Below, piece by piece: positions 11,313 to 64,000 of a stretch of DNA of 64,000 bases (position 1 is its first letter; the number at the start of each line of letters is the position of its first letter). The notes under the pieces are model-generated. The model was not told the origin of the DNA. It made no database searches and saw nothing but the letters and a program-made list of their open reading frames with translations. The stretch is from contig OZ316892.1 of the NCBI GenBank assembly GCA_973895155.1, positions 25,877,233 to 25,941,232 on the forward strand, in the 5' to 3' direction. This stretch comes from Marsupella aquatica. Lineage: Eukaryota; Plantae; Marchantiophyta. Both the position numbers and the translations under genes were made by a program.

Positions 11313-11387
11313 AAATGTACTACCTTTGGGTGGGTGAGGAGAGGGGGGATTGGTTTCCTACATAAATGATGAAGGGCATATGGGATA

Positions 11388-11675
11388 CTCGAGGGGTTAA
11401 CTAAGTGTATATTTTGGGGTACCACGTGTAATCCTAACCTAATATAAATAGACCTATTTTATAAAAAAAATATTCCAAAAATATTCTCTATTTTTAATGT
11501 TAATAATTTATTGCTATTTTATAAAAGGTATATATTAAAGAATATTCTATAAGCATGAGTTTATAATACCTTCTTTTGTCTCCTATGCTTTTTAAAAATT
11601 TAGTTAATTTTTACCAAAAATATTTATTTTGGATCGCACGTGGTTCCTAAAAATTTTGATAGTCAACCCCCCGAG
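11388..11675. mobile_element. MITE (~290 bp) with ~38-bp imperfect TIRs and probable 8-bp TSD
   Basis: Left ctcgaggggttaacta..ttttggggtaccacgtg matches the reverse complement of the right end (ctcggggggttgactatc..tttttaggaaccacgtg). Flanks are atgggata / atgggatc; interior is AT-rich. Confidence 0.75.
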
Positions 11676-22831: not shown

Positions 22832-24433
22832 TGTAGGAAACCGTCAGCTCAGACTAGGCAGCAATGCGGATCTTGATCTTGATCTACAAATCGCAAGGTA
22901 CTCATCACTGATCAATGCCAACACTGAACTCGCAAATCGCAAGGTACTCATCAGTCAACTTATCTCCCACAGTGGTCACCTCGTGCACAATCTCATCAAA
23001 GAGACTTAGGTGATCACGCATGTTCCCACCATCCTTCAGCTTCAACCTGAACAGCCGCTCCAACTGGTAAATACGAGTAGTCAATGAAGTACTCTGGTAT
23101 AGCTAAGTAAGCGTATCCCAGATCTTCTTGGCGTTCCGATCCATCCCCAATACATTCTTGAGAATGTTGTTGGCCAAGAACAACTTGATTGTACTACACG
23201 CCTGCACCAACATGTCTTCCCACTCCTCACCTATCAGATTAGAGGGCTTCACTCTAGTGATGGTCTTCTCAAGACCCTGCTGGATCAACACGTTGGTCAC
23301 CTTACGAGTCCAAAGGCTAAAGCTGACCTTCCCGTCAAACTTCTCCACCTCAAACTTTGGCGCTGCAAGCTTTCGTGAAGCCATGGATGATTCCACAAAC
23401 ACATAGGGTACCGAACTACCTCCACTCAAAAATTTACCAATTAACCTTTATGAATGCATAAAAAACTGACTTGAATAAGAAAGTTAATGGCAAAAATATT
23501 TTTGGGTCGCTCTTAGTTCGACCCTACTTCAGGTCGCCCTTGGAGCGAGGCTCCCCTTGGTGACTCCGGGTCGCCCTTGGAGCGAGGCTCCTTCGGGTCG
23601 CCCTTAGGGCGAGGCTCCGTTGGGTTACTATCAGAAACCCTATTACCTTAGTTTGTTGTTAACATGTGAGGGGCCCACCTGTTGGCCTTATCACAATAAC
23701 ACGTGCCGCTATGAGCACGATTGAGGTAGATTCTCAATCCCCAATCTTATCACTTGAAAATCCGTGCTCAGTTCTTGACCAGCCAAATCAATTCAATCTA
23801 CACGATTGATTACCAAGATCCAACAATCCACTGCAACATTCAAATGGAAAGATACACAAGAATTGTGGCACCGGTCGGAGAAAATCCTGTCACAAACTTA
23901 GCTATCTGCAAATCAGTTTGGTCGAAACAACGCCAGCACCCTGACGACAAGGTGCTCAACCATGTAATTCGACCACAAGCTCTAACAAGAACCCCGATAT
24001 CATGCAGAAAATGCAAGTTGTGACGCTGCGCCCAACTCTCCGTCGCGGAACTGCAACAAACGTCGGAAAAAACTGCAATCTTAAGCTCCGTAGAAGCCAA
24101 ATTTTGGCTCAAAATGTCCAGAACTCCACAGGTTATCAGTTAAGCAACTTCTTCCCCAGATTCAGTAGTTGATTCAGACATCACATTGTAAACAAGCTCC
24201 CGGCCGCCACAACCGAGCAACCACGACAAAGAAAATTGTCACCTCTTCCGAACAGAAAACTCCAGCGCAAAGCGCCCAGTGAAACGATCATGCAATCACC
24301 GATAGTGATTCAATCTTTCACACGATCCAGCACATCAAACATTCTCCCCATTGCCCAGTCAACCGAACGTTGAACATGAAGCTCTGATACCACTTGTAGG
24401 AAACCGTCAACTCAGACTAGGCAGCAATGCGGA
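22832..24433 (-). mobile_element. Internally deleted Ty1/Copia LTR retrotransposon (gag remnant)
   Basis: A 39-bp LTR terminus tgtaggaaaccgtca(g/a)ctcagactaggcagcaatgcgga occurs at 22832 and 24395. The tRNA-iMet PBS TGGTATCAGAGC (minus strand, 24392-24381) abuts it. Gag reads KFEVEKFDGKVSFSLW..IQQGL..AKKIWDTL*LYQ with a premature stop at 23103. No pol. The far end of the 5' LTR is not resolved. Confidence 0.85.
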
Positions 24434-29425: not shown

Positions 29426-29874
29426 TATTTTCCGTCCAATTTCTTGCAGCTAGGAGCTAGCAATTTCTTTTCCTCACTATTTCTGCTTCACCTGCATTTG
29501 TTTGCCTTGCCTACATTTCCTTGCCTCACCTCACCTCACTTCAACATCTTTGCCTTGCCTTGACATCTTTTTGTGTAACACACGGGCATCAAGCTAAAAC
29601 AAAATAGATAGTTTTCACAACAATTGTCAATTGCAATGCATAAGTATCATAAGTGCCAACTGTAACTTGTTGACTTAGCTATGTGAAGACATATTGCACA
29701 AATACTTGTTTACAGTTGCTTCATTGTATTGCCACTGACTCCTAGCTCACTAATGACTATCATATAGGTCTGACACATAGTAAATGCTATGATGTTGTTG
29801 AAGACTCTGAAAAAAATCCATTCTAATGAAACATTGTTGGTATGAACTGGATAAGGTGATCTTCAGGTCCTTGG

Positions 29875-30567
29875 GTGGATGAATGGCTCGTGGAAGGGGA
29901 TACTCGAAAGATTTATTGTGCAAGAGTGAGTCGATTAAGTTGCAGAAATGGTGGTGAGGTGGTAGGCACTACAATTCGCTTTGAGAACCCTTATGGACTA
30001 TTGCTAACTGCCCATCATTGCTGCACATTTGCAGATCCTAACAATGGCAAACTTCTTACTAGAAATGACCTTGTTGCCTTTAACACATCAGTGGAAGTTG
30101 TCCACTTGTCTGAAAAGTATGATCTTGCCTTCCTTCTCCTCAAATCAGGCCCTTATGTGGGAGGGTTTAGACTCTCCACAAGGGCTGAGGAGAAGAGGGG
30201 TCGTGAAGTCCGTATGCTTTCATTTCCCTGGCATGTGGATCGTGCTTTTGGATTTGACCATGAAAATGTAGGCCCGACTGAGGTGCATGGGCATATTGCA
30301 AACCTTGGCCCTAAAGAACGCAAGTTGCCTATATTTGTGGATGCTTTGGCTACTTACATGGGTGGTTTTGCAGCAAGCCCTGGTGGTGCAGTCACAATCA
30401 ATTCCAAAGTTTTGGTTGGAATGCACATAAGGTACAGATATGAAATTATATTTTACCTAACTCTTATCCTAAGAAAATCCTTTGTCTTTGCAGAAACAAT
30501 GACCCTAAAATCTTCCCATCAAAGGATTTTTTCTTTGGACCATGCTGTCATGCTAGTTTTGCACTAA
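29875..30567 (+). CDS. Trypsin-like (Trypsin_2-type) serine protease domain; exon boundaries uncertain
   Basis: His motif LLLTAHHC, Asp motif KYDLAFLLL, nucleophile region GGFAASPGGAV..VLVGMH. Probable acceptor ~29866 and donor ~30432. Confidence 0.6.
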   Translation: MDEWLVEGDTRKIYCARVSRLSCRNGGEVVGTTIRFENPYGLLLTAHHCCTFADPNNGKLLTRNDLVAFNTSVEVVHLSEKYDLAFLLLKSGPYVGGFRLSTRAEEKRGREVRMLSFPWHVDRAFGFDHENVGPTEVHGHIANLGPKERKLPIFVDALATYMGGFAASPGGAVTINSKVLVGMHIRYRYEIIFYLTLILRKSFVFAETMTLKSSHQRIFSLDHAVMLVLH

Positions 30568-37850: not shown

Positions 37851-39208
37851 GAGTGCGCCACCAAAAGCCTTTGCTGGAGCCCTCGAAAGCAAATGAATCA
37901 CTCACAGGATCCCAGGCGTGTCAAAAGCACTACAGTCGGCCCGTCAGGTCTCGATGGCCAGGACCGGGTGACAGGGTCGGGCCGGGAGGGTGTCGGGGGG
38001 CGCCGGGGGGCTACGGTCGGGGCGGCGGGTGGGGGGTCGTGGGGCGGCCGGGCCGGGAAGCGGTGGCCGGGCCTGGAAAGGAAGGGAAGGCCGGGGCGGG
38101 AAGGCCAGGCCGGGGCGGGGAGGACAGTCCGGGGTGTGGAGGGGAGTCCGGGTCGGGAAGGGGTGGCCAGGCCGGGGGAGTCCGGGCCGGGGAGGGAAGG
38201 CCAGGCCGGGGAGGAGGGAGTTCGGGCCGGGAAGGGGTGGCCGGGCCGGGGAGGGAAGTCCGGGCCGGGAAGAGGCAGTCAGGCCGGGGAGAGGCGGTCG
38301 GGCCAGGGAGAGGTGGTCGGGCATAAAGTGCGGCGGGCCGGGTGGGGTGGCGGCCATTAGGGTTTGGGCCCTATTAGGGTTCAGGCTGGGAAGGGTCGAG
38401 GCCGGCGGGAGGCGCGAGCTTGGGTCGGGGAGGAGGTGTTAAAAGGTGGAGAGGCCGGGCCTTTCCCCTCATTCTTCTTTGTGTTTTTTGCAGGAAAGGA
38501 GGAAAGGAGGAAAGGAGGAGGAGAGGAGGAGAGGAGGAGAGGTAAGTTTTTGCCTTTTGCCTCGTGTGTTTTGGTTTATTTTGGTTTGTGTTTTGTAAAA
38601 TGTTGTGTTTTTGCAACTTTTGTTTGCATTTTATAATTTCTTTTTTAGATAAATGGAGGGATATAAAGAGATTCTTGTGCGCGCATGCTTAGAGCTTCGG
38701 CTCGGCATGGGATATTTTGTCCAGGAGTCTTTTAATATCACCTTAACAATTTACGATCATTTATAAATTGAGTGAAACATTACGGAGATAGAGAAACTCA
38801 TGTACGCAAACTTGGAGCTTCGGTTCGGTCTGTGATACTTTGCATGGGTGTCACAATTCGCCGAAAATGTTTTCACTCTATCGACAAATGGTTGTTAAAT
38901 TATAGATATCACATAGATCCAAGTATGAATGTCGTAACTTTGAAAGAAAATAAGATTTTTGTGCACAAGCTTGGAGCTTTGGCTCGGCATAGGATAATTC
39001 ACAAATGTGTTCTCCCTTCTTTTATTGTTGTGACATTCAAAACATTAATAAAAATGAATTGCAATAAAAGTATAAAACGGGAGAGAGAGTGCATAACAAT
39101 TCACGTCGATCCGTGATTTTTAGGTTTTTTGTGGGCAGTTTATTGGAAGGAATTATTTTTGAGTGATAAGCTTTTACTTCTCTCACGTATCATTTTGGTG
39201 AAGCCACA

Positions 39209-40860
39209 ATGGACACTCCTCCTAGTGTAGAATATAGGCTATTGTTGGAAGCGATCACAAAAGTTTTGGATGAGGGGGGTGAACCGGATAGGATGGCTCT
39301 CGACGCACTCAGGAATGCACGAAATACTCTTGAGTATGCACAAACTATTGGCAAAGTGACTAGGAAGAGGAAACAAAGAGGGGGGAATGTTGAGGTCAAA
39401 CATGTTCGATTTAATGTGGTAGTGGCGATATGGAAAGAAGTACTATATCGCTACACTCAACCAAAGCAATATGAGGCAAATGCATTTGAGATGGACTTTA
39501 CCATGCACGGTTTGAAAGGATATAAGAAATTTGTGAACGAGATGACCCGTTGTATTCGTCAAAGTGTAAAGAATGAAGATAATTTCACACGAGAGCAGAT
39601 GGAGACATTTCGAGTTGAATCTGAGAAACCAAGAGGATTTATTGACAATTTGGCAATGAACTTGGAGATGAATATTTGGGATTTGTTGGTGACCAAATTG
39701 AGCTTGGATGATACTACATTGCTTGGAAATCCGGGGATGTATAAGCACAAGAGGGAGTTGTTAGTAACTTGGAGTAAAGAGTTGGCAATGGCAAAAGCCG
39801 AAAGCAACGTCAAATATATCAATAGGGTAATGCAGTTTGAGGATGTCAGTATCAAAAGTGATCCAAAAGGAACTCGTCCATCACGTGTAGTTCCAGAGGT
39901 TAGGAGTATTCATTTCCTTAAGCCTGAGCAGGTGCAAAATGCAAATTCCATCGGGAAAGGTGTCCAAGGAGAGGTATATACTTGTCACATATTAGATTAT
40001 CCACTTATTGTGATGAATGTCACACTAGTCGTAAAACGATTCAAAAAAGGAGATAAGCAAAAGATAAGAACAGATGCATTACAAGAAATATTTATGGGAG
40101 GATTGAATCACAAGAGAATTGTTGGGGCTTTGGCAATGACTATTGATGATCTATCGAGACTTGTCTATGATCACTACAATGGAGGTGATTTGGGAAGCTT
40201 CATATATAGATGCGGATTCTGGTCAAAGAGCAAAGGGAAATTACAAGGTACCTCCAACATTGATTTCAAGTTTGTTTATGAAAAGAAACGTTTTTTGGAG
40301 AACCGTTTGGGAATTGCCTTGGCATTGCTTGAGACACTACAATATTTGCATGAACAAGGTCGATCCCATTGTGATTTTCACTTTGAAAATATTATTCTTT
40401 ATTTTGACTATCAAAGTGATGTATCCATCAAAGTATATATTGGATTATGTGATTTTAGTTTGTCCAAACATAAATCACAAAACAAATTACTAGAGAATCG
40501 AATGTGGCCTACAGCTGCAAATAAAGTTGTGGCCTATCAAAAACAATATCCACAATTGGCTCTAGAGCTTGTTTCGCCCACTCCAGTAAAGTATAGCCAA
40601 GCAACTTATATATATGCTTTGGGCAACATTTTTGAGAGTCTATTTTTAGAGAATTGAAATGGTGCGTCTTTGAAAACACGATGATTGGGTAGAGATTGGA
40701 ATGCCTTGGAGCATGGTCCTAAATTGGAAGCAATGGTTCGTGATATGATGGTCATAGAGGTGAAGAAAATACAGGATTGTGCCTTTTGGAGTTTAAAGAT
40801 GGTTTAGATATTTCAGGATTGTAGACTATTTGCGCAAAATAGTCCTTATCTTAGAGATTA
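39209..40860 (+). pseudogene. Intronless protein kinase ORF (cargo of the hAT element), C-lobe end interrupted by stops
   Basis: 482-aa ORF with IGKGVQGEVY, VVKRF, ALQE, LQYLHEQGRSHCDFHFENII, CDFSLSK and LALE. The frame continues past TGA 40655 with further stops. Confidence 0.75.
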
Positions 40861-47141: not shown

Positions 47142-50100
47142 TGAGAAGAAAGAAGACTCTATTGTCTAAAGAATGAGAGCGTCATATCCTATCCAACGCA
47201 CACTGAATTTAAATAAATTTAACATTGCAAAATAAGTATTTGCTCGATGTGTAGCTATCCATGTCAAAAGAATATATAACACATGATACTATGCAAGCAA
47301 AACAACAAATAAATTAAACAACCACATTTCACAACATTTTTTTGTCCCTGAAATACATGACTATTATTTTCCTTTTTTAAATTTTTGGTTGTAAGAAATA
47401 TAAAAGAGTATGATACTTTGCTGAATTATCCCAGCCTGAGCCAAAACTCCAAGATTGCACAAACAAAGTTTCCCGATCTCTCATACTTGCCTACATTCCT
47501 ACTTTGTCCTAAGTTATAGAATATGTATAACTTAACAACCATTTATCTGTCAAGTGAAAGTATTTTAAAGGAATCGTGACACACATGTGAAATATCACAT
47601 ACCGAGCCAAGACTCCAAGTATATGCATATGAGTTTCTCTATCCTCAAAAATATTTTGCTTCTAAGTAAAAAAATGACTTTGTCAAGTTGTTAAGGCAAT
47701 ATAATAAACTCTTGTACAAAATATCCCAAGCTGAGACCGGGGCTGAGCCAAGGCACCAAGCCTACGTGTGCAAGACTTCTTACATATCCCTCCATTTTAG
47801 AATAGACATAATGGGAATTATAAAACCATCACAAAAAAGGAAGCATAAGCAACACTAAAACAAATCTAAACTTTAATTTGAACCAAAACATACCTTTCTA
47901 CTTTTTCTCCCCATTAGCCAAGCTGCATGAGAGTTGTAGTGTTGCAGAATGATAAAAAAACATCAAGAGTGTCCCCTTTTATCCCCTTGCCAAAGCCCCT
48001 CGGACCCAACCCTTTGAACCCTAACACTCATCGCCACCCAACCCCTAACCCTAATCCCGGCCGCCCGACCCTGCCAAACCCCGACCCTTATCCTCGGCCC
48101 CGACCACTCCCCGGCCCAGTCCTGTCCCAACTCCCTCCCGGCCCGGAGCCCTCCTCGGTCCTGACCCATCCCTAAACCCAACCACTATTCCCTGGCCGGG
48201 TGGAGGGTCGGGCCCTGGTTGGGAAAAAGGGATTCGGGAGAGTTTGGGACTGGGCCGGGAGGGTTCGGGACAAATCGGGACCCAGTCAGGGAATATACAA
48301 GAATATCCGATAACTTCCTCATTTTTGACCCGACAAATGACAAGTTGTCGTGTCCGACAAACGACAACGTGTTCGACAGCTCACCTCGGGCGTAGTTCTG
48401 TCAGTGAAAGCCCCATCAAAGAACAATCCGTCCCCATTTCCGGTGAATGTTATGAAGATAAGTACTAGCCCCCAAAATATATTATTTATTCACATTTTTG
48501 AAGATTAATAAAATAATTTAAAAATCATCATATTATCATTTTAATAATCATATATAACATACCATACTCTTTTTTACACAAATCACTCTTTCTATGCACA
48601 CATATTATAAGAAGGCCATAGAATTCATTTTCTGATATAAATAGAAATTATGACAAAAAATTATTCTCATTTGACATACATCATAATCATGATTTTTCTT
48701 ATCCACATGATGAGCCATGGAGTTAGGCTTCACTCTAGAAACCTACCCAACTCTAGCTTGTAGTTGACGAGCCTCTACTATGATTAGATTGCTTGACCCT
48801 CTTATGTAGCTCACACTGGAACTCTATGATGCTCTTCAGTTTGCCAATCTGTAGGCTTTGGGTTTTTGGTTTTTGGGTTTGCAAAATTCTTTTGTTTCAT
48901 TGCTTCTTGGCCTTTCTTGGCCTTGTGGTTGTCCCCCCTTGATTGGGTCTTTTGCTTGAGGGATCATGTCTCCTGGTTGGGCGCCCTTTGTTTTTGGCAG
49001 TTAAAATATAATATATATCTTTAAACGCAAATTCACTCACCTTTCAAAGGGGCAAAGAATTGGTTGATTCCTAGACAGATGTGAAGCTATTGCTCAAACA
49101 AAGCAGTGCGACTATCTGCTTGATTCCAATCAATTATGGTAAAGCTATGGCTCAACAAGCACCATGGGTATCTAACTGTCCTTCGTTGTCGATTTAAAGG
49201 TTTAGGGGTTGGCACTCCCATCGACGGGACCAGCTTACGGGGCATGTTTTCTATGCCCGTCCCAATGCCCATCATATTTTACTCAAAATCAGCTTTGACA
49301 CACCTTCTAACTTAATCCACAGATGACTACTAGTGGCTCCCATACTTAAAAGCACAAAAAGGGCCAATCCTGGAGAAGGCAGGACAAAGGCTCCACACCT
49401 GGAGACAAGAACATTAAGGTAGAAGACACCCAATAGGGCGTCTCAAAACTAGTTCAGAAGTAACCCCCACCAGAAAAGTAGGTAGAAATATATGTACTAC
49501 CTAAACTGGCAGTTGATAAGTGTTTATGGATGTACTTTAACATCTTCCTATGGGGGCAGACTGTGATAGCCATACTTGACTTTTGAGATGCCCGACTAGA
49601 GGAAAGAAAACAATGAGAAAACCAAAGAGCCAAAATAACCAGTGAGTCCCAGACTGGCAACGGAACTAAAAGCCTACTCAACATTGAATTGAAAAACCCT
49701 GGTAAACCTGAGGAGTAAACCACATGGGAGGGTCACCAAGAAGAATATCACTAGAAGCCATAAAACCAATGACCTCAGCCCTCTGAAGGATAGTGAATGT
49801 CTGATCCCTTATAGTGGAACAGACATGATATCCTATGAATTTGTTATGAACTTGATTAAAATGCCTATAAACTCTGTTTTAGATGAACATTAATCTTTGT
49901 AATTTGTACAAGCTAATCTGACCACAAGTGAAACTCTTCACCTGATCTCCTGCCCCCAACCATGGAACCCCAACCCATCTCCTCCCGACCCTGTGCAACT
50001 CATGCTTTCTACTTTGACTCTCCTCCCTACTCACCATCTATCTGAGACCCTGATCCCCAAAACAGTCATCTTCCATGCTGACCAGCATTTCCCTTGCTGT

Positions 50101-50457: not shown

Positions 50458-53400
50458 ATGGAACCCGAGCCAAGGCCGGAAGTAAGGACGCCAGGGGAGA
50501 GAACACGATTAGGGTTAGGGCACAATAAATGCCGGCGGCTAGGGGTCACCAACGGGAGAGAAACGCTGAGGAGGAGAGGGGTAAGGACCGCTCGCAAAGA
50601 GTTGTGGCTCATTTGCAGGCACGAACTGGGCAGACGACTACGGGCGGCCAACTACTATCAGCTGCTTAAGCAAGCACTCGGGGGGGGAGCAGATACTGAC
50701 TATCAACTCGATAAGGGTATGAGCAACGTCAATCAAGCGGCACATTTTTGGGGATGCCTGTTCGAACGGGCAACTGAGTACATTGGGACTTACGAGGACG
50801 AAGAATCGGAGAGAGCAGCTTGAGAACAGCAGGAACTTGCTTGATTGTGGGAGCTGCAAAAAGCTGCCTTCTTAGGAGGAGAACTCATCAAGGTCGAATT
50901 CTTGTGAACTCCTACTACCAATCAACTCGACGACCTTCTGTTTTGCGAAGATAGAGTCATCGGCATCCGCGAAGCCATCAAACGCTGCAACGACCTACAC
51001 TGGGAGTTGAAGGGTAGCACAGAGGGGTGGACAAAGGCAACCGTGCTCGAAGAGACATCCACGGCAGCCGAGATGAAGAGGAAGAGAATTAACAACGACG
51101 AGGCCACCCCGGAAAAAAGAATGAGGTCGGCGGCACTAAAGAAACCAGCCAAACAGCAGAGCAGGAGGCAGAGAGAAGCCGAGGAGGAGGAGGTCGACCC
51201 CATCAATGCCATTCCAACGAGAGATGACACCTGGAAAGGCTGGGCGGCGATCCTCCCCGAGGAGGTCCAATTACACTTTGCAAGAGAAGAGGATGCATGC
51301 TTTACGGCTATGCAGACTCGGAAATATCAGGGCTTCATGGCCGGATCCGACTTGGAAGCCTTCGTAAGGTTACCGTGGCTGAAGCCGGAGGTGCCGAATT
51401 CAGACTTACTTGAATTCGTGGGATCATGGGAGTCCAAGACCAATTCCACAAGGGGGTATGGGAAGGAATTCTATCTTACTCCCCAGGTGATTGCCGAAGT
51501 ATTTGGCTTGCCGATGGGCAATAAGACCAACGTAGATACCAGGAAGACCTTGCCAGACACGGAGTTCAGGTCGTTTCCAGGGCCTTCAACAAAGAATGGT
51601 TTTTTCCGTAACACTTGCACCAACCCGCATATAGGAGAGATGATCGATTTCTTGCGGGTGACCATGCATTGCAACTGGCCAAGAGCAGAGATCGGCAAGG
51701 CACAGGTCTATCTGGCAGAGAGGCCAGACCCAAGCCGGGACTACAACGGTTACCTCCTCACTCAACTAAAGAAGATCTTGAAGGAGGAACAGCTGGTGAT
51801 CGGCAAGGGAAGCGTGTTCCGGCTGGGCTATCACATGCCGCTATTGTGCCGGTATGCCCGAAGTAAGACCTTTGCCCCGGTACTTCCCCTACAGGCAAGG
51901 GCACTAGAGGAGGTTCCGGAACAGAGGCCGGCAACGGAGAAACCTAAACCGCCCGGCAGTCCTACAATCGAGCAGGTGTTTAGGCCAAGGACGGAGGACT
52001 TGCCGATGCAGCAACCAGGCATGCAGAATCTGTTGAAACTGCTGGAGAAAGAAAAGAGAACGGCTACGGCATCGGCAACAACCAAAACAACAGCAACAAT
52101 ACAGGACACTGCTCCAGAGGTAGGCCTAAACCGGCTTATAAGGGAAAACCCCTTTACTGGAGTCAAGGAGAGAAGGAGGCCGGAACACGAGCCGGGAGTC
52201 CGGATGTATGTAGGAGCCTCTAGTCCCGAAGCCGAAGAGAAGCAGGCCGTAGCTCCCGGCCCCGACAAGGAGAACAAGAGCTCAACACGGAAGCCGGAGG
52301 AGGAACCAAGACCGGCAAGAGGTGAAGCCGTGTTCACAACAAAATCAGGAGAACAGCGGAAGAAGCTGGTAGTCCAAGCCAAGGAGGAGGCGGTGGAGGA
52401 CTACAGCAATGATAACTCTGGCTACGGGTCGGATCATCATGTTCCAGGAGTAAGGACATGTGGCCGGTTTATCCCCACACTCCCAAGAGTAGTCCGAGGG
52501 GACCCGAGCCAGCAGAGCAGCCCCGAGTCTCCCCCGCCAGATGTCGCTCCCCCAAGCTTTGACGGCATAAAACAGACGGCGCAGGAATTTCAGGAGCGAA
52601 TGAGGGAGGAAGAGGAGGCAGCCCTGGCTAGGGAGAAGGATTTACCAGGAGGAGAATGGCTAGAGAACATCAGGCGGCTTGCAGAAAAACGAAGCAGCCT
52701 CCGGCCACGATAGAGGAGATCCGCAAGGCGGCTTGGGAACAAAGGCCGCGGTGGATGATGCCGATGACTTCTACTTCCTCCACCTATGCTAAAAATAGAG
52801 CCATGGAGTACGGGGAGATGTGTGGAGAACTAGCGCTCAGCATCTTTGGGGAGGAGTTGGAGCAGGGACCCTTTTTCCAAAGGGAGATGTTGGAGAAGCG
52901 CCATTTAGAAGAAGCGGTGGCCTTGGAAAGAAGCAAGAAGGACGAGGTCATCCGTCGGCTTAGGGAAAGGGAAGTCGAAATCAAGGACCTAAGGGCGGCC
53001 AAGAAAGCCCAAGATGAGCTGCGGATTAAGCGGCATGAGCTAAATATCATGCAGGGCCAGTTGGATACCGCACAGTATGATAATCGGATGATCGGGAATC
53101 TACTGACGCGGACCCAAGGAGAGTTGGCCGATGCGATCAAGGAGCGGGAGAAGTGGAAGCAAGAGCTAAGGAATGCAGAGGAGGCCCACATAACAGCCAA
53201 CAACCGGGCCATGGCGGAGACCCAGAGAAGGGAAAGGGCGTTGAAGGGGGAGCTCGAGGTTATCCGCGGAGCCCTTAAGCAGAAGGAGGCTGAGTTAGGG
53301 AAATCCTATCAAGGGATTATTGCACTGCAGCAGGAACTTGCGTCCCTGACGGCCAGCTTCAAGGCCGACCTACGGGAGAAGGATGACCAGCTCGACCAGA

Positions 53401-54026
53401 CTTATGCCAAGATGAATAAAATGGAGTCTGAGGTCATAACGGAGCTCGACAAAGAGCTAAGAGCAACCCAGGAGGAGAGGGCTACCTTGAAGAAGGAATT
53501 GGAGGAAGCCCACAGGGAGCTGGAGGAAGCCCAGAAAGAACTGGAGGAGGCGCGCAAGGACCTGGACGAAGTGCAGGAGGAGTTGGAGGAAAGCACGTGG
53601 AAGCTGGAGAACTTACAACGGCGAGCCGACAACCAAACGGAGCGGCTGAAGAAACAAGCCACAGTAATTAAAGGCTTGGCTCCATCAGGCCCAACTCCAA
53701 TTGGGGCAACCAAGTTACCAGGAGTGGTACTGGCCGAAGAACAAGCCGCGCCACTTGCACCAGTGCCGGAAGTAAGTGGGAAGGGGAAGGGACCAGCTGC
53801 CGAACCAGAAAAGAAGAAGAAGCGGAAACCTTCAGGGTCAAGGAGTAATACGGCTCCACAGGCCGTGGTGACCCAGGAGGCAGACCCAGCACCGACCCCA
53901 GGCAGGGTCACGACAGAGGATCCAACTACCCTAGAAGTAGGGGATGACGAAGTCAAGGCTCAGGCCGAAGCCGTGGCTGATGCCAAAGCCGGTGCCGAGG
54001 CCGAAGCCGAAGGTGGGCCCAGTTAG
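50458..54026 (+). pseudogene. Decayed ~1,190-codon TE-type ORF (plant transposon-protein-like segment plus long coiled coil)
   Basis: ORFs 50452-50823 and 51007-52713 share one frame interrupted only by TGA at 50821, 50842 and 50905. A 1-nt loss in the A-run at ~52686-52690 links to 52656-54026. Segment LLEFVGSW..GKEFYLTPQVIAEVFGLPMG resembles retrotransposon accessory ORFs, and there is a heptad E/K/L coiled coil. No introns. Confidence 0.55.
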
Positions 54027-55897
54027 GCCAATGGAGAGTTGACTAAGTCCAGGGCAGGTAATCTGTCAGAGAACGAACCTACGGCAGTGGCTGAGGAGGA
54101 AGCGTTGGGGGCGTCCACTGAGGAACAGACACCGCTGCCATGACGGTGGTGGAGGGCCGCTCCTTTCAAGGAGGGCAGACGTGGAGGGAGGAGGCGTGAG
54201 TGGGCAGGGCGGGCTCGGATCTCTAAGTTTAGGATTAAGATCAGGACCAGGAGGCGGCCCTGACACTTGGCTTAGTGGGATTGCGGTTCCACTGGTAAGA
54301 GCAACACTTGTACTCCTGCCTCGTTGTAGTTAGGTAGATTCAGTTAGGTAGATTTGGCTTACGCTGCAAGGAATTAGGCGGATCTGCGTCCAAGATAAGT
54401 ACCTGGGCAGCGGGGAGCTCAGGGCCTCTTCTTTAGCAAGTTTTTAGTTGCACCAGCCGGGCTGGGATCAAGTAGTAAGAGAAGCTCTCGGTTAGTCATA
54501 CAGTGACCCTTGTGTATATTCATGTTTCCTCATGCCTAAGAGCTGAATAGAGTTGGCCTCACAGCTTAGTTCGCAGAGCTTGTGTATGAGATGTACCGTT
54601 TGTATGGCAAGTGCATGGTATGACTCAGTCAGAAGGAGTCATTTTGCTAATTGTGTGTCGCATTAACTTGTGTGAAGAGTGCCCACATCAACTAATAGAT
54701 GAAGGAAAGTAAGCAAAGGAGTGAGAGTTGGATGTGTCGAGCTGAGAGGGGTCTTAGCGGCTTAACCAAGCCTATTGGGGATCATTCCGGCGGCGGAATC
54801 CAAATATACCCAACCAGAAGGAGAGGAAGAGAATGGAAGGCCCAGATTAGGCCGGCTACATATCTCATGACCCGATGAAGGATCTATCCAGTATATGTGT
54901 GTAAAATGTTAATAGTAGTAGTAGAAGGAGGTTAGCAGCGTCCCATGCCGCTAAGCCGCGAAAACAGCCTCGTCGAGGACGAAACCCACGGGAATCGGCT
55001 TGTGCGGGGGGGTTTCTTGGGTTTGGGGAGCCATGGGGCGCACCACACCTACCTAAAGGTGACTGCTGCTTTTTTTACTCTCCTCCCTATTTGGGGCTCC
55101 TACCTTCTATTTGGAATTCTAGTCCATGCAACTTTTGTATCTCTTCCCCTACCCACAACTCATGACTTCTTTGTTGACTATCCTGTTTGCACAAATCTTT
55201 AGACTCTATTATCTTTCACATTGATAACATATGTACAATGACCATACTTTGTAGAATGCACCAGAATGAACTACTCTACTAACCTGTACCCCTAAACCGA
55301 TCCAAATTGTAATTTGTCACCTAATTAAACTATTTTAGTTGCCAGCTTGACCCCCATTTCATGTATGGGGTTAACTAAACTGTAGTCAAACCCAAAGTCC
55401 CCAATGAATGGTCTGATAGGGGTTAAACCCTAAACCCACTAAATCACAGTATTCATTAAAACTGGAAATTTAAAAGTCCAGATTGTGATCCTCAAATTTA
55501 CATTCTTGTCTCTAAAAAGTCCATTAATTTTGCTCCAAATCAACAATTTTTCAAGACTAAATATACACTCTTTTTGGTTTAAAATTACACTTTTGCACTC
55601 CAAATTTGATTTTAATCAATTAATCATAATACAGAAATTATTAATATTAATTGTATTTGAAATTAAATAGATAAGTGACAAACATGTATCATTTGGTCAA
55701 AAACTCATGATTAAATTCAAAGTGAGATTAATCATCTCATTTATCATAACATATATTCAAGGTTGGCTAGCCATAATGTCGATCCTACTCCAATGGTCAA
55801 GCTAGTGTAAAGTCCAAAGTAGTTCTATGACCTATGAAATAGAAAAATGATTGCATGACTCCAATCTTGTGTCCTACAATGTACAGAAACATAATGA

Positions 55898-56970
55898 TTA
55901 ATCATCTAAAATTTCAAATTCTATGCCTCCATGAATATGTCTACATGACTGATTTGAACAAGTGAGTCGCTCTCCATTTGGGTCATATAGTCTGTCACGA
56001 GTACAAGTGTCTTTGGGATAACGGTTTTTAAACTTAGAGGTGAGATCCCTAGTCTTTAGAACTTCCCAGACAAATCGGCGAGGATTTTCTCTGAAGGGAC
56101 CTGCATAAGACTCGCCCAAACAGTTGTTGACCACATCTTTCATATCATCTTTGGTCAGGTTCTCAAATGTAGGGTAGGATTGTACCATATCCCTCACTTC
56201 CCAACATATCTCATCTCCAGTGACATCCAAGATGGTATACTCAATCTTGGAACGCCAAATCTTACTTCCCCACTTATGGGAAAGTAAATCATAGATTGCA
56301 GCATTACTTTCACGGTCATCATTTATATTAACAAATGACCAAAGTGGATTGTTGACAGATATATATTGTCGGATGTCATAAGCCTTCCACAATTTTCTAA
56401 GGAATGGCCAAAGTATCTCTGGTAGAAAAGTGTCACTCTCGGCAATGTGTGAGAAGGGAGTTGGGAACAAACCACTATACTGTGGATTTGCAAAAGCCTT
56501 CACTGGAGAGTCATCAATAAGTAGAGTGTTTGTATCATCATACTTGTCTCCAAAACGACTCCACACCACACGCAAATCCTTCAACATAATATTTGCTTTC
56601 CCATCTGCTACGTCCGGTCTTTTTATGCCAGAATCAAAAGCATCTTCTTGTGTGAAAACAAATTTAAATTGCCTCTGCTCCTCTTCTTTGAAAATCAAAT
56701 TCATCATTTCATTAGTTCTTGGCCTCCCCGCACAAGTCCACAATGCGACATCAAAACCTTTGAAAGCCACCTCCAAAAATTGGTGCAACCCTGGCCTTTC
56801 CACGTACATGAAATTGAATCCACCCCGTCTCCCCCAATGCACACCCTGCACAGTTGTTGTAGATCTTAACGGTCCCGAGCTTTTTGTTTTGACGCAATCC
56901 CAACAAATTTTGTTCAGGTCCAAAATCAAGAGTTTTCTTCTTATATCAGAGTGCAATTTAGGAGTGAAAT
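55898..56970 (-). CDS. FCP1/NIF-like HAD phosphatase domain exon with possible terminal CCCH finger
   Basis: KLLILDLN, ERPGLHQFLEVAFKGFDVALWT, KFVFTQED and LKDLRVVWSRFGDKYDDTNTLLIDDSPVKAFANP are NIF-family motifs. The C-terminus has C-x14-C-x4-C-x3-H. Confidence 0.85.
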
Positions 56971-59900
56971 CTGCAAAGATCCAAATGAATCAAAATTATA
57001 TCTAAAAGATATAAAAGAAGAACTTAGGGTCAAACCTGGATCGACCCGACCTAATGGGGAAAACAAACATATCATTTTTGAATGTCAAAGCATTTTGATA
57101 TATCAATGTAGAAGTACCTTGCTCAAATGCTTTGTCTTGGACCAGGGTACCGCTTGCTGAAGGTAGACCAATAATATCCTTCGATGGAAGAGATGCTATG
57201 ACAAAACTTTGGTCTGTCCATATATGATTTCCAAACATAATATTTTAGATTATTGTGAAAAATAGAATAACGAAACCATAATATTAACCTCCACTACTAA
57301 ATGACCCATATTCATCTATCATTTTATCACCTAGATCACTTTGGATATCAGAATTGACGCCAACAGGAAGCTGCTCCACCAACGTTGGCGGCGCAAACAC
57401 TGGACTCAATCTCAATTTGTCTATTATGTAATCAGGTTTGACCATTAACTTAGGCGCATCCTCCAACGTTTCTTTCAATCCAACTTTAGGTCCATTTCTC
57501 CAAATGAAATGAGTTGCATGACGGACTGTCTTCATATATCCTGTTCTACCTATCTCAGATCCAGACTTTTGAGACAAGCGTAATATTATGGGGCTTCCGC
57601 TTGACATCCTTGTGAAGACCAATTTATTCCCTGACGAACAAAATTGAGGAGACTCGGAACAAGTTGAAGCACCTGCCTCTTCAGCTTCAACATTTGTTGT
57701 CTCTCCAAGTGGAAGGTTGTCTTCAATAGCTTCTGCAATACCAACTTGTAGGTCCGTGGTGGGTGTAGTGGCCCCAATATTCTGCCAACCTGCATCCAAT
57801 GTGCACGATACCTGCGGTCTCTCGGGATGCAATTTTGATACTTCAGGGTTGAGAGGATTTGAGGGAGGGTCGCTCTCAAGGCGACCCGACATCACTATGT
57901 CGAGTTGAGGTAGCCCTTCAACACCGTAGGTAGTAATGCCAACCATTTTTGTTGCTCGAGCGTCCCAATTTCCGCCAAAATCCTCCTCTACCATAGGACT
58001 TGAACCTCCATCATCATGCTGCAACTCACCATCCTCAAGGTCAACTCGCTGAGGGCCCGGTTGGGGGTTGTCCATAGGCCCGCAAAGAACACTTAGATGA
58101 GCTCTCCTAGGACCATGTACTCCCATCCGCTCTTTCATAAGGGAGGGAATCCTGTTGCACAAAACCCTTGCATATGCTTGGGTGAAATGGTGTTCTTGCA
58201 AAGTGTCTGAATAGACAAAACAATCTCGGTATGCCAACAAGGCCACCTTCAAAACCTGCCCTCATGAAAAAAAATCGAGGACAGTCTCCCCCTCACCGGA
58301 AAAACATTCAATAATATTTTTGAGCATGTGTCGGGGCTTGGCATGCGGATTGACAAATCCTCCTCAACTTCCGACCATCTCAAACATTGGAGCTTGCCGC
58401 AATAAATCTGCCATATCAAATGCGGGAGACTGCTCCTCTGTCTCATTCTCTTTTCCCTTGCTTTTCTCTTGCTTGTCAGCCTTCACTTCAATATTGAAAT
58501 CACAGTCAACATCGGGGTGAAAACTAAATTTTGAATTGAACTTTGGCTTAAACAATTGATTCCAATCAAAATTGTCTTCACCTGTAATTCCAACAAAAAT
58601 GACCTGCTCAATCGCTCCTGTAAAAATTAAGCCCTGCGGATTTGGGCGATCTTCCCGATCATAACTCCCGTATTCAACATGGATGGCCAAATGCTTTTCA
58701 TGTCCTAATTTCCTTAGGGCACTTAAGATGTTGGCTGGAAGTGGCCCTGGATGAGTAGTCATGACAACTACAATGGTTGTATTCCTTGGCAACTCCACAA
58801 TATATTGGAGCAATACAAAAATTTCTGAATCTGTCCATTCATGTTGTCGTGCCCTACTAAAATCAACAATTGCAAGTGGACACATTGGCGTCGCCTCTTC
58901 CAATAACTCTGGCGTGGTTGTCTTCATTAGATTCTCACTGAAGAACGTCAAGAAAGGCTCTGTTCGTGTGCGCCCAACTCCACCAAATTGTTTGCAGTAC
59001 AACCCGTCTAATCTCACCATTAGACTTTGAGGGAAAGCCTCCTTCACAATGTTCTTCCTTAATAAACTGCTAAGGTAGACCTCCCCAGCTGCTCTTCGCA
59101 ATTTTGTCAGCTCAAGTTGAGATCCCAAGGCTGGCATGATGTTGACCACCGAAGCCCATGATGTCCCCCCGGGAAACTTCTCCTTGTGCTTCTCAACAAA
59201 GTACTCAACAATGACTTGCTTCAATTTAGTCATTACCTTGATGGTATGAGCCATATCTGGCATTGACACCAGATCCATCTTGTTGGAGGCATCTTTCTTG
59301 AGAAGTGCTTTCTTCTCATAAACCGCGGTCAATATATCAATGATATCCTTAGAACTGATCTCCCCTTCAAAACATCTAAAAAGAGTTGGCGTGACCAGCT
59401 TTAGTGGCCGCGGCCCACCATACTCTCCTGCCCCGCCAGGGAGCTTCCCTGCCAACCAATCCCAACAAACAGTTTGCCATAAATGGAAAAGCTTATCCTC
59501 AGCAAAGAGCAACCAAAAAATGGCTTTCAAGCTCGACTTTCCCATTGTTATCTTTGCGAGGGCAAACCAATCCTGCATTTACATTCATCCACCAAAAAAC
59601 ATGTTAGATGTTTAAACTTAGAAACTTCAACTTCTCTGCCTCGCCCCTAGAGCGAGGCGAAGAAAATGACAAAGCCATATGAAAATGGTTGGGGCAATCA
59701 TTGTATTCATCATTCAATTTCATTTGGGTCGCTCTAAGAGCGAGGCAAAATTAAACTATAGTTCCAACTAATGAAAATGTTTACCTGGTATTTTTGGTTG
59801 TCTGTACTTTGGTTTGTTCCAATTCTTGGACACGGTGGTTTCCCACATTCATCAAATTGCCTTCTCGCATGAACAACTGTCTCTAGAAAACAAGACTTAA

Positions 59901-61408
59901 ACTGCATGGTCTGATTTACTGCATTTGAAAGGCTCGAGTGCTCGACCAAAATTGCCCTTGGAGTGAGGTCTGATAAGATCCTCGCTTTCCGATATTGGAG
60001 TTTGCTAGCAAGACCAGTTAGCTTGGCATCCTTGTCTGCCCACCCTTGAATCCATTGTGCAGCCTTTGCGGAATGTTGCCCACTGATTGCAAGAAATTGT
60101 ATCTCTTGCTTCTTAACACCAAACAAAAATTGCTTCCGATCGCGTGCGGTATTGTCAAAATGTAACAACTGCTTAGTGCGCTCTAGAAATGGAATCAAAT
60201 CTGCAACATGTGGTTCCTGGCCAGGGTTTTTCATCATTGATTTTGCTATCTCTAAGGCATGAGCCTGGTTGAACATCCGATACACAAAAACTGCAGTAGG
60301 CGGAAGAATACTTTTAACCGGGATTTCAAAAACCTCCCTGATTCCAAAAGTGTAGTATTGCTCGATGTTCCGCAAAGCTTTCTGCCCCTCCAATATATCT
60401 CGTTCCTCTGGTGCATCTGTTGGGCATGTATCATCCTCCGGATCCAAGACCAACCTTGCTTTTGACGCTGACACGGGCTTTGATTTTCCAATCTTGGCCT
60501 TCTTCTTGGGCTTCTTGTCGGAGTCCTTATCTTTCTTCTTCAACGCCGCCTTTTTTCCTCTAGTACTTCCTTCACTCCTTGGCTCTCTTTGTTTTCTCTT
60601 CTTCTGTGTTTAAGCCGACGTCATTTCTTTGGCCTTCATCTTCATCTTCCCCTTACCTCGATGCTTTTCTTCCTTCTTCTTTTGAGTTGAAATCCACTTC
60701 ATGCAAGCATCTTTGTCAAACTCATCAGAGAAAATAAAACTCTTATCAATTGCTTGCTCATATGAAAAGCGTGTTGTTTCAATCATCCTCTGGACAACCC
60801 ATGTGTTAGGAAGATCTATAAGGTTCGGATGATCATGCATGTACCACTTCACAGAGAGGAATCCAAAGACAACATCAACCCCACTCAATTTGAATCTTCC
60901 ATGCCTCTCAAGAACATCCTCTGCAGTGAACCCATCTGGAAGAAATCCCATTGAACAAATACTAGCCTCCGAGCGTGCTATCCACTCCACGTTGATAATT
61001 GACGAGTACATCTTGATTGGCAAGTAAAGTCTCATCCACTGAGATCTTTCTCTGGATTCAATAATGATTGTAACATTGCGGTTATCACTGCAATTTACAA
61101 GGACCACAGGGCCCAACGCAACTATCTTCTTGTCGTTCATTGTCTCAGCAGTGATTGCCTTGATACAAATCATCGACAAGTCATTCTCCATGATCCCTAC
61201 TTCAAGTGCCCACGAAAATCCTGCCTTATCTTGTCCAGGGAAGATAAAGTCCTTGACATCCTCGGCCATAATATTTAACTCTGGGGATCCAAGTTGTTCT
61301 CCTGGAAAAACAAATTGAAACAACAAACATTAAAGCAAGAGATCTTCTTTGTTGCCTCGCCCCTAGAGCGAGCTGGAGACAAGGTCTGCATCAACAAACA
61401 TGTGGGTT

Positions 61409-61759
61409 GGGTCGCTCCTGGAGCGACCCTAGGAAAACTTAAATCAAGGTCCAACCAACAACAAATTTGGGTCACTCCTGGAGCAACCCTAGGAAAACTT
61501 AAATCAAGGTCCAACCGACAACAAAGTTGGGTCGCTCCTGGAGCGACCCTTGGAAAACTTAAATCAAGGTCCAACCAACAACAAATTTGGGTCGCTCCTG
61601 GAGCGACCCTAGGAAAACTTAAATCAAGGTCCAACCAACAACAAAGTTGGGTCGCTCCTGGAGCGACCCTAGGAAAACTTAAATCAACATCCAACCAACA
61701 ACAAAGTTGGGTTGCTCCTGGAGCGACCCTAGGAAAACTTAAATCAACGTCCAACCAAT
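61409..61759. repeat. Tandem array of six 60-bp units, each with a 21-bp hairpin palindrome
   Basis: gggtcgctcctggagcgaccctaggaaaacttaaatcaaggtccaaccaacaacaaa(t/g)tt starts at 61409, 61469, 61529, 61589, 61649 and 61709. Confidence 0.95.
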
Positions 61760-63057
61760 AACAACGACAAATCTTAGGCAAGATAGGGTCGCTCTAAGAG
61801 CGACCCTTCAAAGACTAACTTGCATCAATTGTTGAATCATACTTACATGGAACTGTGATATGAAATCCCCTTGAGGCGGCCAAAGTGGATTCCACCGACA
61901 TCTTTAGTAAAGTGTCTTGAGAATCATACTCAAAGATTTTACTAGAATCAAAGTTCAGGGACTGCCCATAACTAGAAGTGCTAGTAGAATCATCAGAACT
62001 AGAGGAAGTGGCCATTGAAAAATGCCTCACAAACGTTTAGATGACACGTGGCAGCCTAGTATACAAGAACGCCTAGAGCTAGACCACACCACGGAGCGAG
62101 GCTACAGAGCAAGGAAAAAAATCTACTATGAGCAAGGCAAAATCAACAGAGCGAGGCAAGAAAATCTACTATGAGCGAGGCAAGAGGGAGGAGGGAAACC
62201 AGGGCAACTGGGCAAGAAGACAATGAAGGAGGAGATGGATGCAAGAAGACAATGAGGCAAATGAGGTAATGTCTTTGCCTTTTGCCTTCCTATACCCTCA
62301 CTGCCACGGCCGATCCTACGCCATGGCCAATCGTACGCGACCTTACGCAACCCAGCCACTTGCTCCCTTCCACGCGCCTGTGAACTCGCAACCCTCATAA
62401 TGACCTAGCTGTACGGGTATCCATAGATTTTGAAAAATGATGCACGGTCGTACGGGTGTCCACAGAATGCCGATCAGAGTAATCAGACTTTCGGCCTCTC
62501 GATGTTGTGAACCCCTTCAGGACAAACTTGGCTAAAGCTTGCTCACAAATGGTATAAAGTTCTACAGTTCCAATCATTTCTCTCTTTTGTATGGCGTGTG
62601 CGTTTCTGGTCATTGCTCACTCTCGGTCTCGCCCTTCGGCCCTTATCTATCTTGCTTCTGTTCGGTGACTGATTCGACTGACTTGGACATTTATGGTTAC
62701 AAGAGTTCGTGCAAGGAAAGTCCTGTTTCAAGTATATTGCATTAGTTTTGGTGTCCTTGGTTGGCGACACGTCTTCTATAGTCCTTAAGAGAGGTATTAC
62801 TTCATCTACCATTCTCTTAATTTCTTCTCTATGATATCCACCAAATATTTGGCCCTAGCTTTATCTTAATATATGGACCTAACTAAGCCCTAGATAATGT
62901 AGGGTTCCTAACGACACACTCGTCTACCCACACGTCTACACACTTCAATGGTCTAATTCAGCTTAATCATTCCCCTGATTTATTCATTTCCATATTTTCT
63001 CTTTTCCTTCACAATTCTTGCTTCTCCAGGATTGTGCTCGTCTTTTCTTGCTCTCCC

Positions 63058-63462
63058 CTTGCCTCGCTCCAAGAGCGTCATACACTTACCTTTCATCAGG
63101 AGCATCCTACCCTTTCTTTTCTCCAAGGGCATCCGCTCTCCATTGCCTCGCCATCAGAGCGTCCCTCAACCGCCTTGCCCCTAGAGCAACCCTCCATCGC
63201 CTAGCCGCTAGAGTGACCCTCATTCACCTTGCCCCTAGAGCGTCTCTCCATCGCCTCGCCCCTAGAGCGACCCTCATTCACCTCGCCCCTAGAGCGACCC
63301 TCCATCGCCTCGCCTCTAGAGCGACCCTCCATCGCCTCGCCCCTAGAGCAACCCTCCATCGCCTCACCCCTAGAGCGACCCTCCATCGCCTCGCCCCTAG
63401 AGCGTCCCTCAATCGCCTCGCCCCTAGAGCGTCGCAACCTTGCCTCGCTCCAAGAGCGTCCC
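63058..63462. repeat. Tandem array of ~10+ 27-bp units built on the same palindromic core
   Basis: cgcctcgcccctagagcgaccctccat repeated at a 27-bp period from ~63171 to 63440, with degenerate copies at both ends. Confidence 0.9.
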
Positions 63463-63522
63463 TGACCTTAGAATCCAGTTGTGTAAAGCCAATACACATA
63501 AACTCCCAAATATGTTTTTCCT

Positions 63523-63996
63523 TTAAATAGAATTCAAATGTTTAGATCTAATATTGTAATATCTAGAGTAGTGCTTATCAGTATGCACATCAGCTGAACA
63601 ATTTTTAAATGTTTTTGGATGCAGAGATCCTTTTGCTACCATGAGTAAATTTATGCGAGGGGATGAAGTTTCATTGATAATTGATGGTTTTGAAGTGGCA
63701 ATTGGGACCATCCAAAAGGTTGATCCCAAAGACACTATACACAATATTTGTCTTGGGAAAAATCGAATTGGGGTCCTTATCGAGAGGTGTCTTGAAACAT
63801 CTTGTCCACTACCATTTCCATCCAAAACATCATCGAGCCTAGGTGATGCAGTTGACTCATGTATGATCTGGGATTCTTCCTTGGCATATTTGAGGTCTTC
63901 AACATTGCCGAAAAGAACCGCTGTGGATGGTGTTCCTACTCCAGTGGACGGGGATGAAGGATGTTCCGAAATGGATGTTGGTGGTAAAGGAGGCAA
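63523..63996 (-). CDS. 3' end of an unidentified ORF running in from beyond the window
   Basis: Open frame from the window edge to TAA at 63525-63523; no motif recognised. Confidence 0.35.
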   Translation of the reverse strand: MPPLPPTSISEHPSSPSTGVGTPSTAVLFGNVEDLKYAKEESQIIHESTASPRLDDVLDGNGSGQDVSRHLSIRTPIRFFPRQILCIVSLGSTFWMVPIATSKPSIINETSSPRINLLMVAKGSLHPKTFKNCSADVHTDKHYSRYYNIRSKHLNSI

Positions 63997-64000
63997 CCTT

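Follow-up and report, generated by a model that had tools for sequence, protein, structure and literature searches.

What kind of gene joins a ParB-like domain, a DNA methyltransferase-like domain and a phosphatase-like domain in a liverwort genome, and what may it do there? The question is raised by a minus-strand locus in a 64,000-nucleotide stretch of the Marsupella aquatica genome (GenBank assembly GCA_973895155.1, contig OZ316892.1, positions 25,877,233 to 25,941,232 of the forward strand), hereafter the window, in whose numbering all positions are given. From our sequence and structure analyses, we conclude that the gene is very probably transposon cargo in which a degenerate beta-class methyltransferase (MTase) fold is fused to a ParB-like fold. 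Its product may be an accessory protein of a young CACTA-type element, likely binding the element's own palindromes and, with pseudo-enzyme domains, keeping the element active against silencing by 5-methylcytosine (5mC); we favour this second reading, but hold it tentatively. What the analyses show directly is the exon structure in the sequence, the multi-copy state, the CACTA end, stops that only this copy has, three folds, the loss of canonical catalytic motifs and the enrichment of a palindrome.

Gene structure and reading frame

Splice contexts and reading frame define a gene from 62015 to 55898 with five exons, four GT-AG introns and 1,712 codons (Table 1), where the initial annotation had predicted a protein of ~1,600 amino acids (aa). 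The five open reading frames (ORFs) that it had joined (60610-61329, 59734-60609, 58364-59578, 57284-58261 and 55898-56989, minus strand) were confirmed as listed and do form one spliced frame, with GT-AG junctions of matching phase (YQ/DW at 59785/59572, G/AC at 57289/57213 and G/AT at 57118/56970). The peptide in the gap at 58363-58253 also reads exactly as given before. The G/AC and G/AT junctions towards the phosphatase exon were correctly predicted, but the mini-exon between them had been overlooked. Likewise, three premature stops had been noted (60612, 58366 and 58264), but not a fourth that arises across the exon 1/exon 2 junction at 61847. The YQ/DW junction is read across by two Calypogeia gene models (P0004 and P0013), and the unnamed ORF P0161 is intron-less there. 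None of the contig joints listed (15 of 26) in the public runs, whose contigs are of unrecorded kind, is splice-like. A coding role of the 60-bp array in intron 1 was ruled out by two stops that precede it in the exon-1 frame.

Two parts of the protein, the N-terminal domain of exon 2 (60690-61300) and the domain ending in EYGSF (57290-57650), are conserved and have no Pfam match; an Atlas search with the EYGSF domain returned no usable match. The Cys/His tail at the end of exon 5 (55930-56010; C-x14-C-x4-C-x3-H) is possibly a zinc finger and also lacks a Pfam match.

Table 1. Coordinates of the gene, its element and the associated repeats in the window
Feature	Position	Strand	Remarks
Exon 1	61847..62015	-	ATG at 62015; Ser-rich N-terminus; premature stop across junction at 61847
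Intron 1	61302..61846	-	545 bp, phase 1; six-copy 60-bp tandem array of the palindrome at 61406-61764
Exon 2	59785..61301	-	N-terminal conserved domain, Lys-rich linker, stop 60612, ParB/Srx-like domain at ~60400-59800 with SGQHS
Intron 2	59573..59784	-	212 bp, phase 0; two palindrome copies
Exon 3	57289..59572	-	Post-ParB helical region; beta-class MTase fold at ~58990-58133 without catalytic motif IV; stops 58366 and 58264; acidic linker; small conserved domain with EYGSF end
Intron 3	between exons 3 and 4	-	75 bp, phase 1
Exon 4	57118..57213	-	96-bp mini-exon between introns 3 and 4
Intron 4	between exons 4 and 5	-	147 bp, phase 1
Exon 5	55898..56970	-	NIF/HAD phosphatase-like domain (motif I DLNKI), conserved helical stretch, Cys/His tail
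Transposon terminus	55437..55480	+	Begins CACTA; ~44-58 bp common to other element ends; terminal inverted repeat inferred
CACTA-type element, multi-copy, visible part	55437..64000		Continues beyond 64000
Dispersed palindrome TCGC-N7-GCGA	57870..63459		Up to 21 bp with flanks; exon 3, intron 2, exon 2, intron 1, upstream array
27-bp tandem array	63138..63463		12 copies, same palindrome; upstream of gene
Divergent open frame	63572..64000	+	Cut by window end

The methyltransferase-like domain

The Pfam profile N6_N4_Mtase matched only the S-adenosylmethionine (AdoMet)-binding block of the window protein, at an E-value of 5.6e-4 that lies below the curated cut-off; it also matched 8/8 relatives, one of which passes the cut-off, and a profile of the gene family in turn found M.RsrI (E 6.5e-6). 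An AlphaFold model of 58990-58133 (57 rows) reached a predicted local distance difference test score (pLDDT) of 88.8. With this model, a structure search retrieved CcrM at E 3e-9, and the two structures aligned with Z 17.0 and a root-mean-square deviation (rmsd) of 3.6 over 212 residues. The Z-scores were 15.1 for PvuII, 14.1 for the bdelloid N4CMT and 9-11 for METTL3/14, compared to 5.3 or less for unrelated folds. The modelled domain has a permuted Rossmann fold with motif IV ahead of motif I, in the order IV-X-I. The beta-class N4/N6-MTase fold proposed initially is thus borne out by the model.

The catalytic motif of such enzymes was not found. None of 35 aligned rows has PP(Y/F) after the motif-IV Asp, and (D/N/S)PP(Y/F/W) occurs nowhere in 167 proteins; the motif-IV strand ends in DFSR, DLTH, DLAR or DATT in the family, with no conserved aromatic residue. 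Motif I reads DFFSGG, one residue shorter than that of M.RsrI, and the strand after it ends without an acidic residue in 43/43 rows, with an Asp one place later in only 14. The N4-methylcytosine (4mC) writer DN4MT1 carries TSPPY (bioRxiv 2021.02.12.428880), and in N4CMT (SPPY) and CcrM an S/D-P pair is described to hold the target amine via the Pro backbone (PMC10406627). The likeness in function to DN4MT1 and N4CMT that had been drawn at first, with motif IV unexamined, is therefore not upheld. Given the missing PP(Y/F), the short motif I and the lack of a conserved acid, the domain is best read as a putative pseudo-methyltransferase kept for its fold.

The ParB-like and phosphatase-like domains

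Neither the window exon nor its homologues gave a ParBc profile match in Pfam, PHROGs or sequences from the PDB; P0013 gave a weak match to DndB (E 0.031). The fold was examined on a model of the homologue P0013, which is 56% identical to the window (pLDDT 89.4). Foldseek placed Noc, ParB and sulfiredoxin (Srx) first, with a best E-value of 7.6e-3 and none under 1e-3. The VIA comparison returned 8 of 48,161 chains at a Z-score of at least 5, the best at 7.7 (rmsd 3.6 over 98), and all eight were of ParB/Srx type, counting the SerK, SbnI and Atu1540 chains, which we take to be members of that group. With these proteins leading both searches, the modelled homologue sustains the ParB/Srx fold that had been suggested for the exon.

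When the Atlas was searched by features, clusters of the fungal family DUF3723 came out nearest, with a score of 0.96; DUF3723 was also among the matches by structure, with a template-modelling (TM) score of 0.56. By structure, clusters combining ParB_N with a helix-turn-helix (HTH) were retrieved at TM 0.46-0.59, and the helical region aligned with ParB_N+HTH clusters at TM 0.46-0.52. The Pfam profile of DUF3723 (PF12520) gave no hmmscan match. DUF3723 is described as a conserved cargo of fungal Starship elements, of unknown function and located beside their captains (bioRxiv 2021.12.13.472469).

The GxHR-like motif reported before is in fact SGQHS. This sequence occupies the position of the Arg patch in 9/11 rows, and no Arg follows the His in 11/11. 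Canonical ParB CTPases have a GxxRxxA patch at this place, so that CTPase activity of the protein is uncertain.

Exon 5 matches Pfam NIF (PF03031) well above its cut-off (E 1.7e-16; 60.8 bits vs 21.8), and the only solved structure among the sequence matches listed is UBLCP1 (E 5.6e-8). Of the initial reading of this exon as a phosphatase-like domain specific to the RNA polymerase II C-terminal domain (CTD), the NIF domain is upheld. The canonical catalytic motif of FCP1/SCP enzymes is DxDx(T/V); motif I reads DLNKI in the window and DVEGL in the Riccia proteins P0128 and P0054, and CTD-phosphatase activity is thus not supported.

Relatives and domain fusions

Searches with exon 3 and with the ParB-like part gave 8 relatives among 7,995 scored candidates and 4 among 366, respectively, and a profile search gave 221 at E-values of at most 1e-3 among 1.84 billion representatives, 150 of which were listed. 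Thirty relatives were looked up: 19 are from Riccia sorocarpa, on contigs of seven different lengths, two from Calypogeia fissa and one from the fern Ceratopteris richardii, and eight have no organism given. Three further Calypogeia proteins came from the exon-3 and ParB-part searches. On these sequences, the gene family spans two liverwort classes and a fern, and appears mostly intact and young in this genome. The Pfam check of 40 of the 150 listed relatives found N6_N4_Mtase in 17 and NIF in three.

ParB-like and MTase-like regions are joined in 7/177 proteins, in one of them (P0161) within a single uninterrupted ORF. MTase-like and NIF domains are joined in three of the 177, all Riccia gene models, and a fourth Riccia model (P0054) runs into the start of NIF. 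The NIF domains from Riccia share 30-31% identity with that of the window, and the alignment extends beyond the Pfam domain. By this sequence comparison, support is good for the fusion of ParB and MTase; for that of NIF, it comes pairwise from gene predictions and does not extend to every copy, and a shorter product that would end in intron 3 is possible.

A tree of 39 of the 57 rows, made with a quick method, groups the window with Calypogeia (Shimodaira-Hasegawa-like approximate likelihood-ratio test, SH-aLRT, 94, unstarred). The tree includes neither a prokaryotic outgroup nor DN4MT1 and points to no donor and no direction of transfer. In tblastn searches of phages, P0008 gave 71 records with short matches to the AdoMet block (best listed E 6e-3, about 70 residues), whereas the ParB exon and P0161 matched nothing. 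Viral contigs gave 0 matches of 158 in one scan and two weak ones of 101 in another, and a GTDB scan gave two weak matches of 98; matches in the viral and prokaryotic scans had 28-47% identity and covered only the AdoMet block. JGI metagenomes yielded three matches of 192, including one true relative on a 1.8-kb contig. The folds are of bacterial type. A direct prophage origin is unsupported; the closest look-alikes of the ParB region are the fungal DUF3723 clusters.

The mobile element and the decay of the window copy

Four public contig sets from two studies (X1-X4) were aligned to window positions 54000-64000; their contig depth is not a measured copy number. Position 55437, at which the plus strand begins a CACTA, is the exact start of an X1 contig that diverges after 55494. 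X1 depth in the bin 55428-55503 is 1015, compared to 314 inside the element and 17.7 outside, and loose contig ends lie behind 55480 in X2, X5 and X6. The contig start, the depth peak and the loose ends fit a terminal repeat of ~44-58 bp that is shared with other ends. EnSpm elements are defined by 5'-CAC termini and 3-bp target-site duplications (TSDs) (PMC12730594). Most of 55465-64000 is covered by X1 contigs with depths of 256-314. They show 51 differences from the window in 7,621 bases (0.67%), and the last of them runs past the window end; the identical contig on the flank has a depth of 17.7. Flank-to-element ratios of contig depth are 11-46 in the four runs. The element is thus present in multiple dispersed copies, and carriage by a mobile element, as first proposed, is borne out by this depth and the CACTA end. 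No second copy of the CACTA terminus occurs within the 64-kb window. The divergent frame at the window end gave no usable Pfam or PHROG match; it may resemble the TnpA/Tnp1 domain of CACTA elements. A telomere-like CCCTAAA stands directly outside the CACTA end (55427-55436).

All four stop positions carry a different, non-stop base in all four runs, with 94-100% of the depth in X1 and X2 and 100% at three of the places in X3 and X4. Because the stops are absent from other copies, we regard the copy in the window as one that has decayed slightly, within an element present in multiple copies. Differences were taken from the 40 rows listed of 471 in all, which gave 38; of the 30 in coding sequence, 10 are synonymous, 16 non-synonymous and four stops. 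These proportions are in line with neutral decay, except that stops are mildly overrepresented (P 0.024). Among private changes of the C-to-T type, 22/24 lie in CG or CHG contexts, compared to a background of 24%, so that the window copy was likely silenced by 5mC in the past. Assembly errors were rejected as the source of the stops, because the private changes are CG/CHG-biased and the remainder of depth 16.6 at 61847 matches the flank depth. Removal of the stops by RNA editing was rejected as well, since other DNA-like contigs simply lack them.

Selection on the frame is suggested by a ~96% identical sub-family contig (X6) that spans 55730-57450 and shows 68 substitutions plus 29 gap letters. 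All eight listed indels (28/29 letters) lie in the 3' untranslated region (UTR) or intron 4, although the 3' UTR and introns 4 and 3 make up only 23% of the interval (P about 7e-6), and none lies inside the mini-exon. Half of the listed coding changes (11/22) are synonymous, compared to 28% expected (P 0.026), on 26 rows taken from the 40 listed of 108. The pattern of changes points to selection on the gene frame in this sub-family. More distant contigs of high depth match conserved NIF motifs only, which indicates that related sub-families exist.

A dispersed palindrome within the element

The palindrome TCGC-N7-GCGA has 16 exact matches in the window, where 0.13 are expected, and 12 of them lie inside the element. 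With one mismatch allowed per half, 24 copies are found in 55437-64000 and four in 1-55436. No copy occurs in the 461 bp beside the terminus (55437-55897). Three copies outside the element, at 23491-23618, are possibly a remnant of a related element. VANC proteins are described to bind short motifs in non-coding tandem repeats of their own elements and to remove silent marks (PMC10398659); the placement of the palindrome in introns and upstream of the gene matches that of the VANC targets.

Other features of the window

The CACTA end is adjoined by an abundant repeat with a contig depth of 10^4-10^5, which follows two GC-rich plus-strand ORFs at 50908-55335 (601 and 464 aa) with coiled-coil and no convincing Pfam match. 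Inverted repeats of ~250 bp, 71-82% alike (38651-38909 and 47521-47797), surround a protein-kinase ORF (39170-40657) and could belong to a gene-carrying element with terminal inverted repeats. Direct repeats of >1 kb, ~97% alike and 8,970 bases apart (10210-11577 and 19176-20283, 22105), enclose an ARM-repeat fragment at 13182 and represent a long terminal repeat pair or a duplication. Pfam also assigns plant-type genes (CCCH finger, F-box and kinase) to the window, and 3928-4554, 7863-9173 and 29860-30567 belong to ordinary genes of the host or to pieces of such genes (F-box, CCCH zinc finger, trypsin-like protease).

Discussion

Proposed function and alternatives

For the accessory protein that we tentatively favour, we envisage that a dimer would read TCGC-N7-GCGA via the helical region that follows the ParB domain, in the way that ParB and Noc dimers recognize palindromic sites. 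The MTase fold without DPPY/SPPY may serve as a DNA-gripping, dimerising or base-sensing module, in analogy to METTL14, an MTase fold that acts other than as a writer. The NIF domain could be a docking module or a weak phosphatase. The net effect would be a sequence-specific self-activation resembling that by the VANC proteins of VANDAL elements.

Several points weigh against this proposal. Binding and anti-silencing are deduced from co-occurrence only, and the palindrome could instead be a site for the product of the divergent TnpA-like frame or for a transposase. Neither transposase nor second terminus nor TSD is seen in the window, the second end lying beyond 64000. The window copy was itself likely methylated and has decayed, and the non-stop base at 58366 makes up only 11% (X3) and 40% (X4) of the summed depth. 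Support for the ParB fold is moderate, as the best Z-score of the model is inconclusive singly, while the set of matches is consistent. All three domains together occur in 0/177 proteins, and 14/177 relatives lack NIF and terminate at EYGSF, among them P0004 and P0009, two gene models of Calypogeia. If intron 3 is not spliced, a stop follows at 57286; a separate NIF product could begin at 57238, where there is an ATG in frame. Lastly, the motif-IV Asp is kept in 31/35 rows, the motif-X Lys in 46/48 and the two Gly of motif I in 42/47 and 43/47; a conserved AdoMet block with a motif-IV Asp is also expected of an active enzyme.

The alternative that survives best, though we consider it unlikely, is a helper of transposition, in which a ParB/DUF3723-like clamp would contribute to the assembly or timing of the transpososome, and the palindromes would be recognized by the clamp or by the TnpA-like protein of the element. 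The conservation of DUF3723 beside Starship captains, for which a parallel with DNA-transfer functions has been suggested (bioRxiv 2021.12.13.472469), fits this role. The putative TnpA-like frame also points away from the gene, with the 27-bp array between them. However, sites of Spm TnpA lie near the terminus, and the 461 bp beside the terminus here are free of the palindrome.

It is improbable that the phosphatase exon is separate or optional and the whole a passenger without a role for the element. The stop in retained intron 3, the ATG at 57238, which shares the frame of exon 4, and the Calypogeia models stopping at EYGSF agree with an optional NIF, as does, as a weak test, a search for relatives of 1335-3810 aa that found none among 3,871 candidates. 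Against this, three Riccia models join the MTase-like and NIF domains and P0054 reaches the NIF start, and the first in-frame ATG inside exon 5 (codon 54) lies 40 codons past motif I (codon 14). A passenger is also at odds with the frame-preserving selection in the sub-family and with the retention of the family from liverworts to a fern.

Rather improbable, too, is the strongest form of the initial interpretation, in which the protein, targeted by its ParB module, is an active N4C/N6A DNA methyltransferase whose active site is unusual and which writes 4mC or N6-methyladenine (6mA) on the element or the genome. Its complete, confidently modelled beta-class fold, the conserved residues of motifs IV, X and I and the existence of plant and rotifer 4mC writers would be in line with such activity, but the absence of PP(Y/F) and of a conserved aromatic, the shortened motif I and the missing acid after it are not, given that DN4MT1 has TSPPY and that N4CMT has SPPY, in which the Pro backbone positions the target amine (PMC10406627). 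That the gene is left over from an endogenous virus or prophage, or is a single-copy gene domesticated by the host, is very improbable: the bacterial-type folds and the weak phage MTase matches are outweighed by four spliceosomal introns, the CACTA end, the near-identity of many copies and viral and prokaryotic matches confined to the AdoMet block.

Returning to the accessory protein, we can extend the proposal to a more speculative and rather doubtful form, in which CACTA elements of liverworts and ferns would carry a parABS-like device. Here, a DUF3723-related ParB clamp would load at parS-like palindromes in introns, spread, bring the MTase-fold and phosphatase-fold modules and shield the element from 5mC silencing. 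The MTase-fold module would sense or block cytosine or adenine marks; that it writes them is less likely.

Comparison with known systems

A parallel to the proposed function is VANC of the Arabidopsis VANDAL elements (Mutator-like), which is likewise encoded by a transposon accessory gene and recognizes a short motif in non-coding tandem repeats (PMC10398659). It belongs to another transposon superfamily and has other domains, as far as tested, and its binding and demethylation have been shown, whereas ours are predicted. Fungal DUF3723, a conserved cargo of giant DNA transposons, provides the nearest Atlas clusters to the ParB-like region; the present protein differs by its lack of a PF12520 match, its plant CACTA-type host element and its fusion to MTase-like and NIF domains. 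CcrM, M.RsrI, M.PvuII, DN4MT1 and N4CMT share the fold and the motif order IV-X-I, but this gene family lacks DPPY/SPPY throughout, has a shorter motif I and encodes a multi-domain transposon protein. With ParB/Noc clamps, the protein shares a ParB/Srx N-domain and, behind it, a helical region that aligns along the length of Noc, KorB and Spo0J; the clamps have the Arg patch in place of SGQHS. NIF/HAD phosphatases (FCP1/SCP, UBLCP1) share the Pfam NIF domain above cut-off and differ in DxDx(T/V), which is replaced by DxN in the window and DxE in Riccia.

A linkage of ParB and MTase has been described for phages and algae (PMC4738411), where the algal ParB-HTH fusions are to group-2 Dam MTases and not to beta-class enzymes. 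DNA-modification folds borne by mobile elements are known from TET/JBP in fungal EnSpm, Plavaka and KDZ elements, with a proposed escape from silencing (PMC12730594), and from the likely inactive MTase of DIRS1 (PMC4738411). These systems differ in enzyme family, host kingdom or element class, and the portions of both papers available to us describe no ParB or NIF partner. We found no open-access paper on the gene family or on a link between DUF3723 and ParB, in agreement with the earlier impression that the three-domain architecture is undescribed, although the supplements of PMC4738411, Repbase and subscription papers may list it.

Significance

Very few systems are known in which transposons counteract silencing in a sequence-specific manner, and the gene family described here is a candidate for such a function that is built from bacterial partition and MTase folds. 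It can be tested directly, with a defined candidate target site and mostly intact young copies. Matches to N6_N4_Mtase in bryophyte genomes need not mean that 4mC writers are present. Our finding also suggests a link of DUF3723, a family of Starship cargo, with the ParB fold and with transposons of plants; if the parABS-like device is true, it would be the first mechanism for DUF3723.

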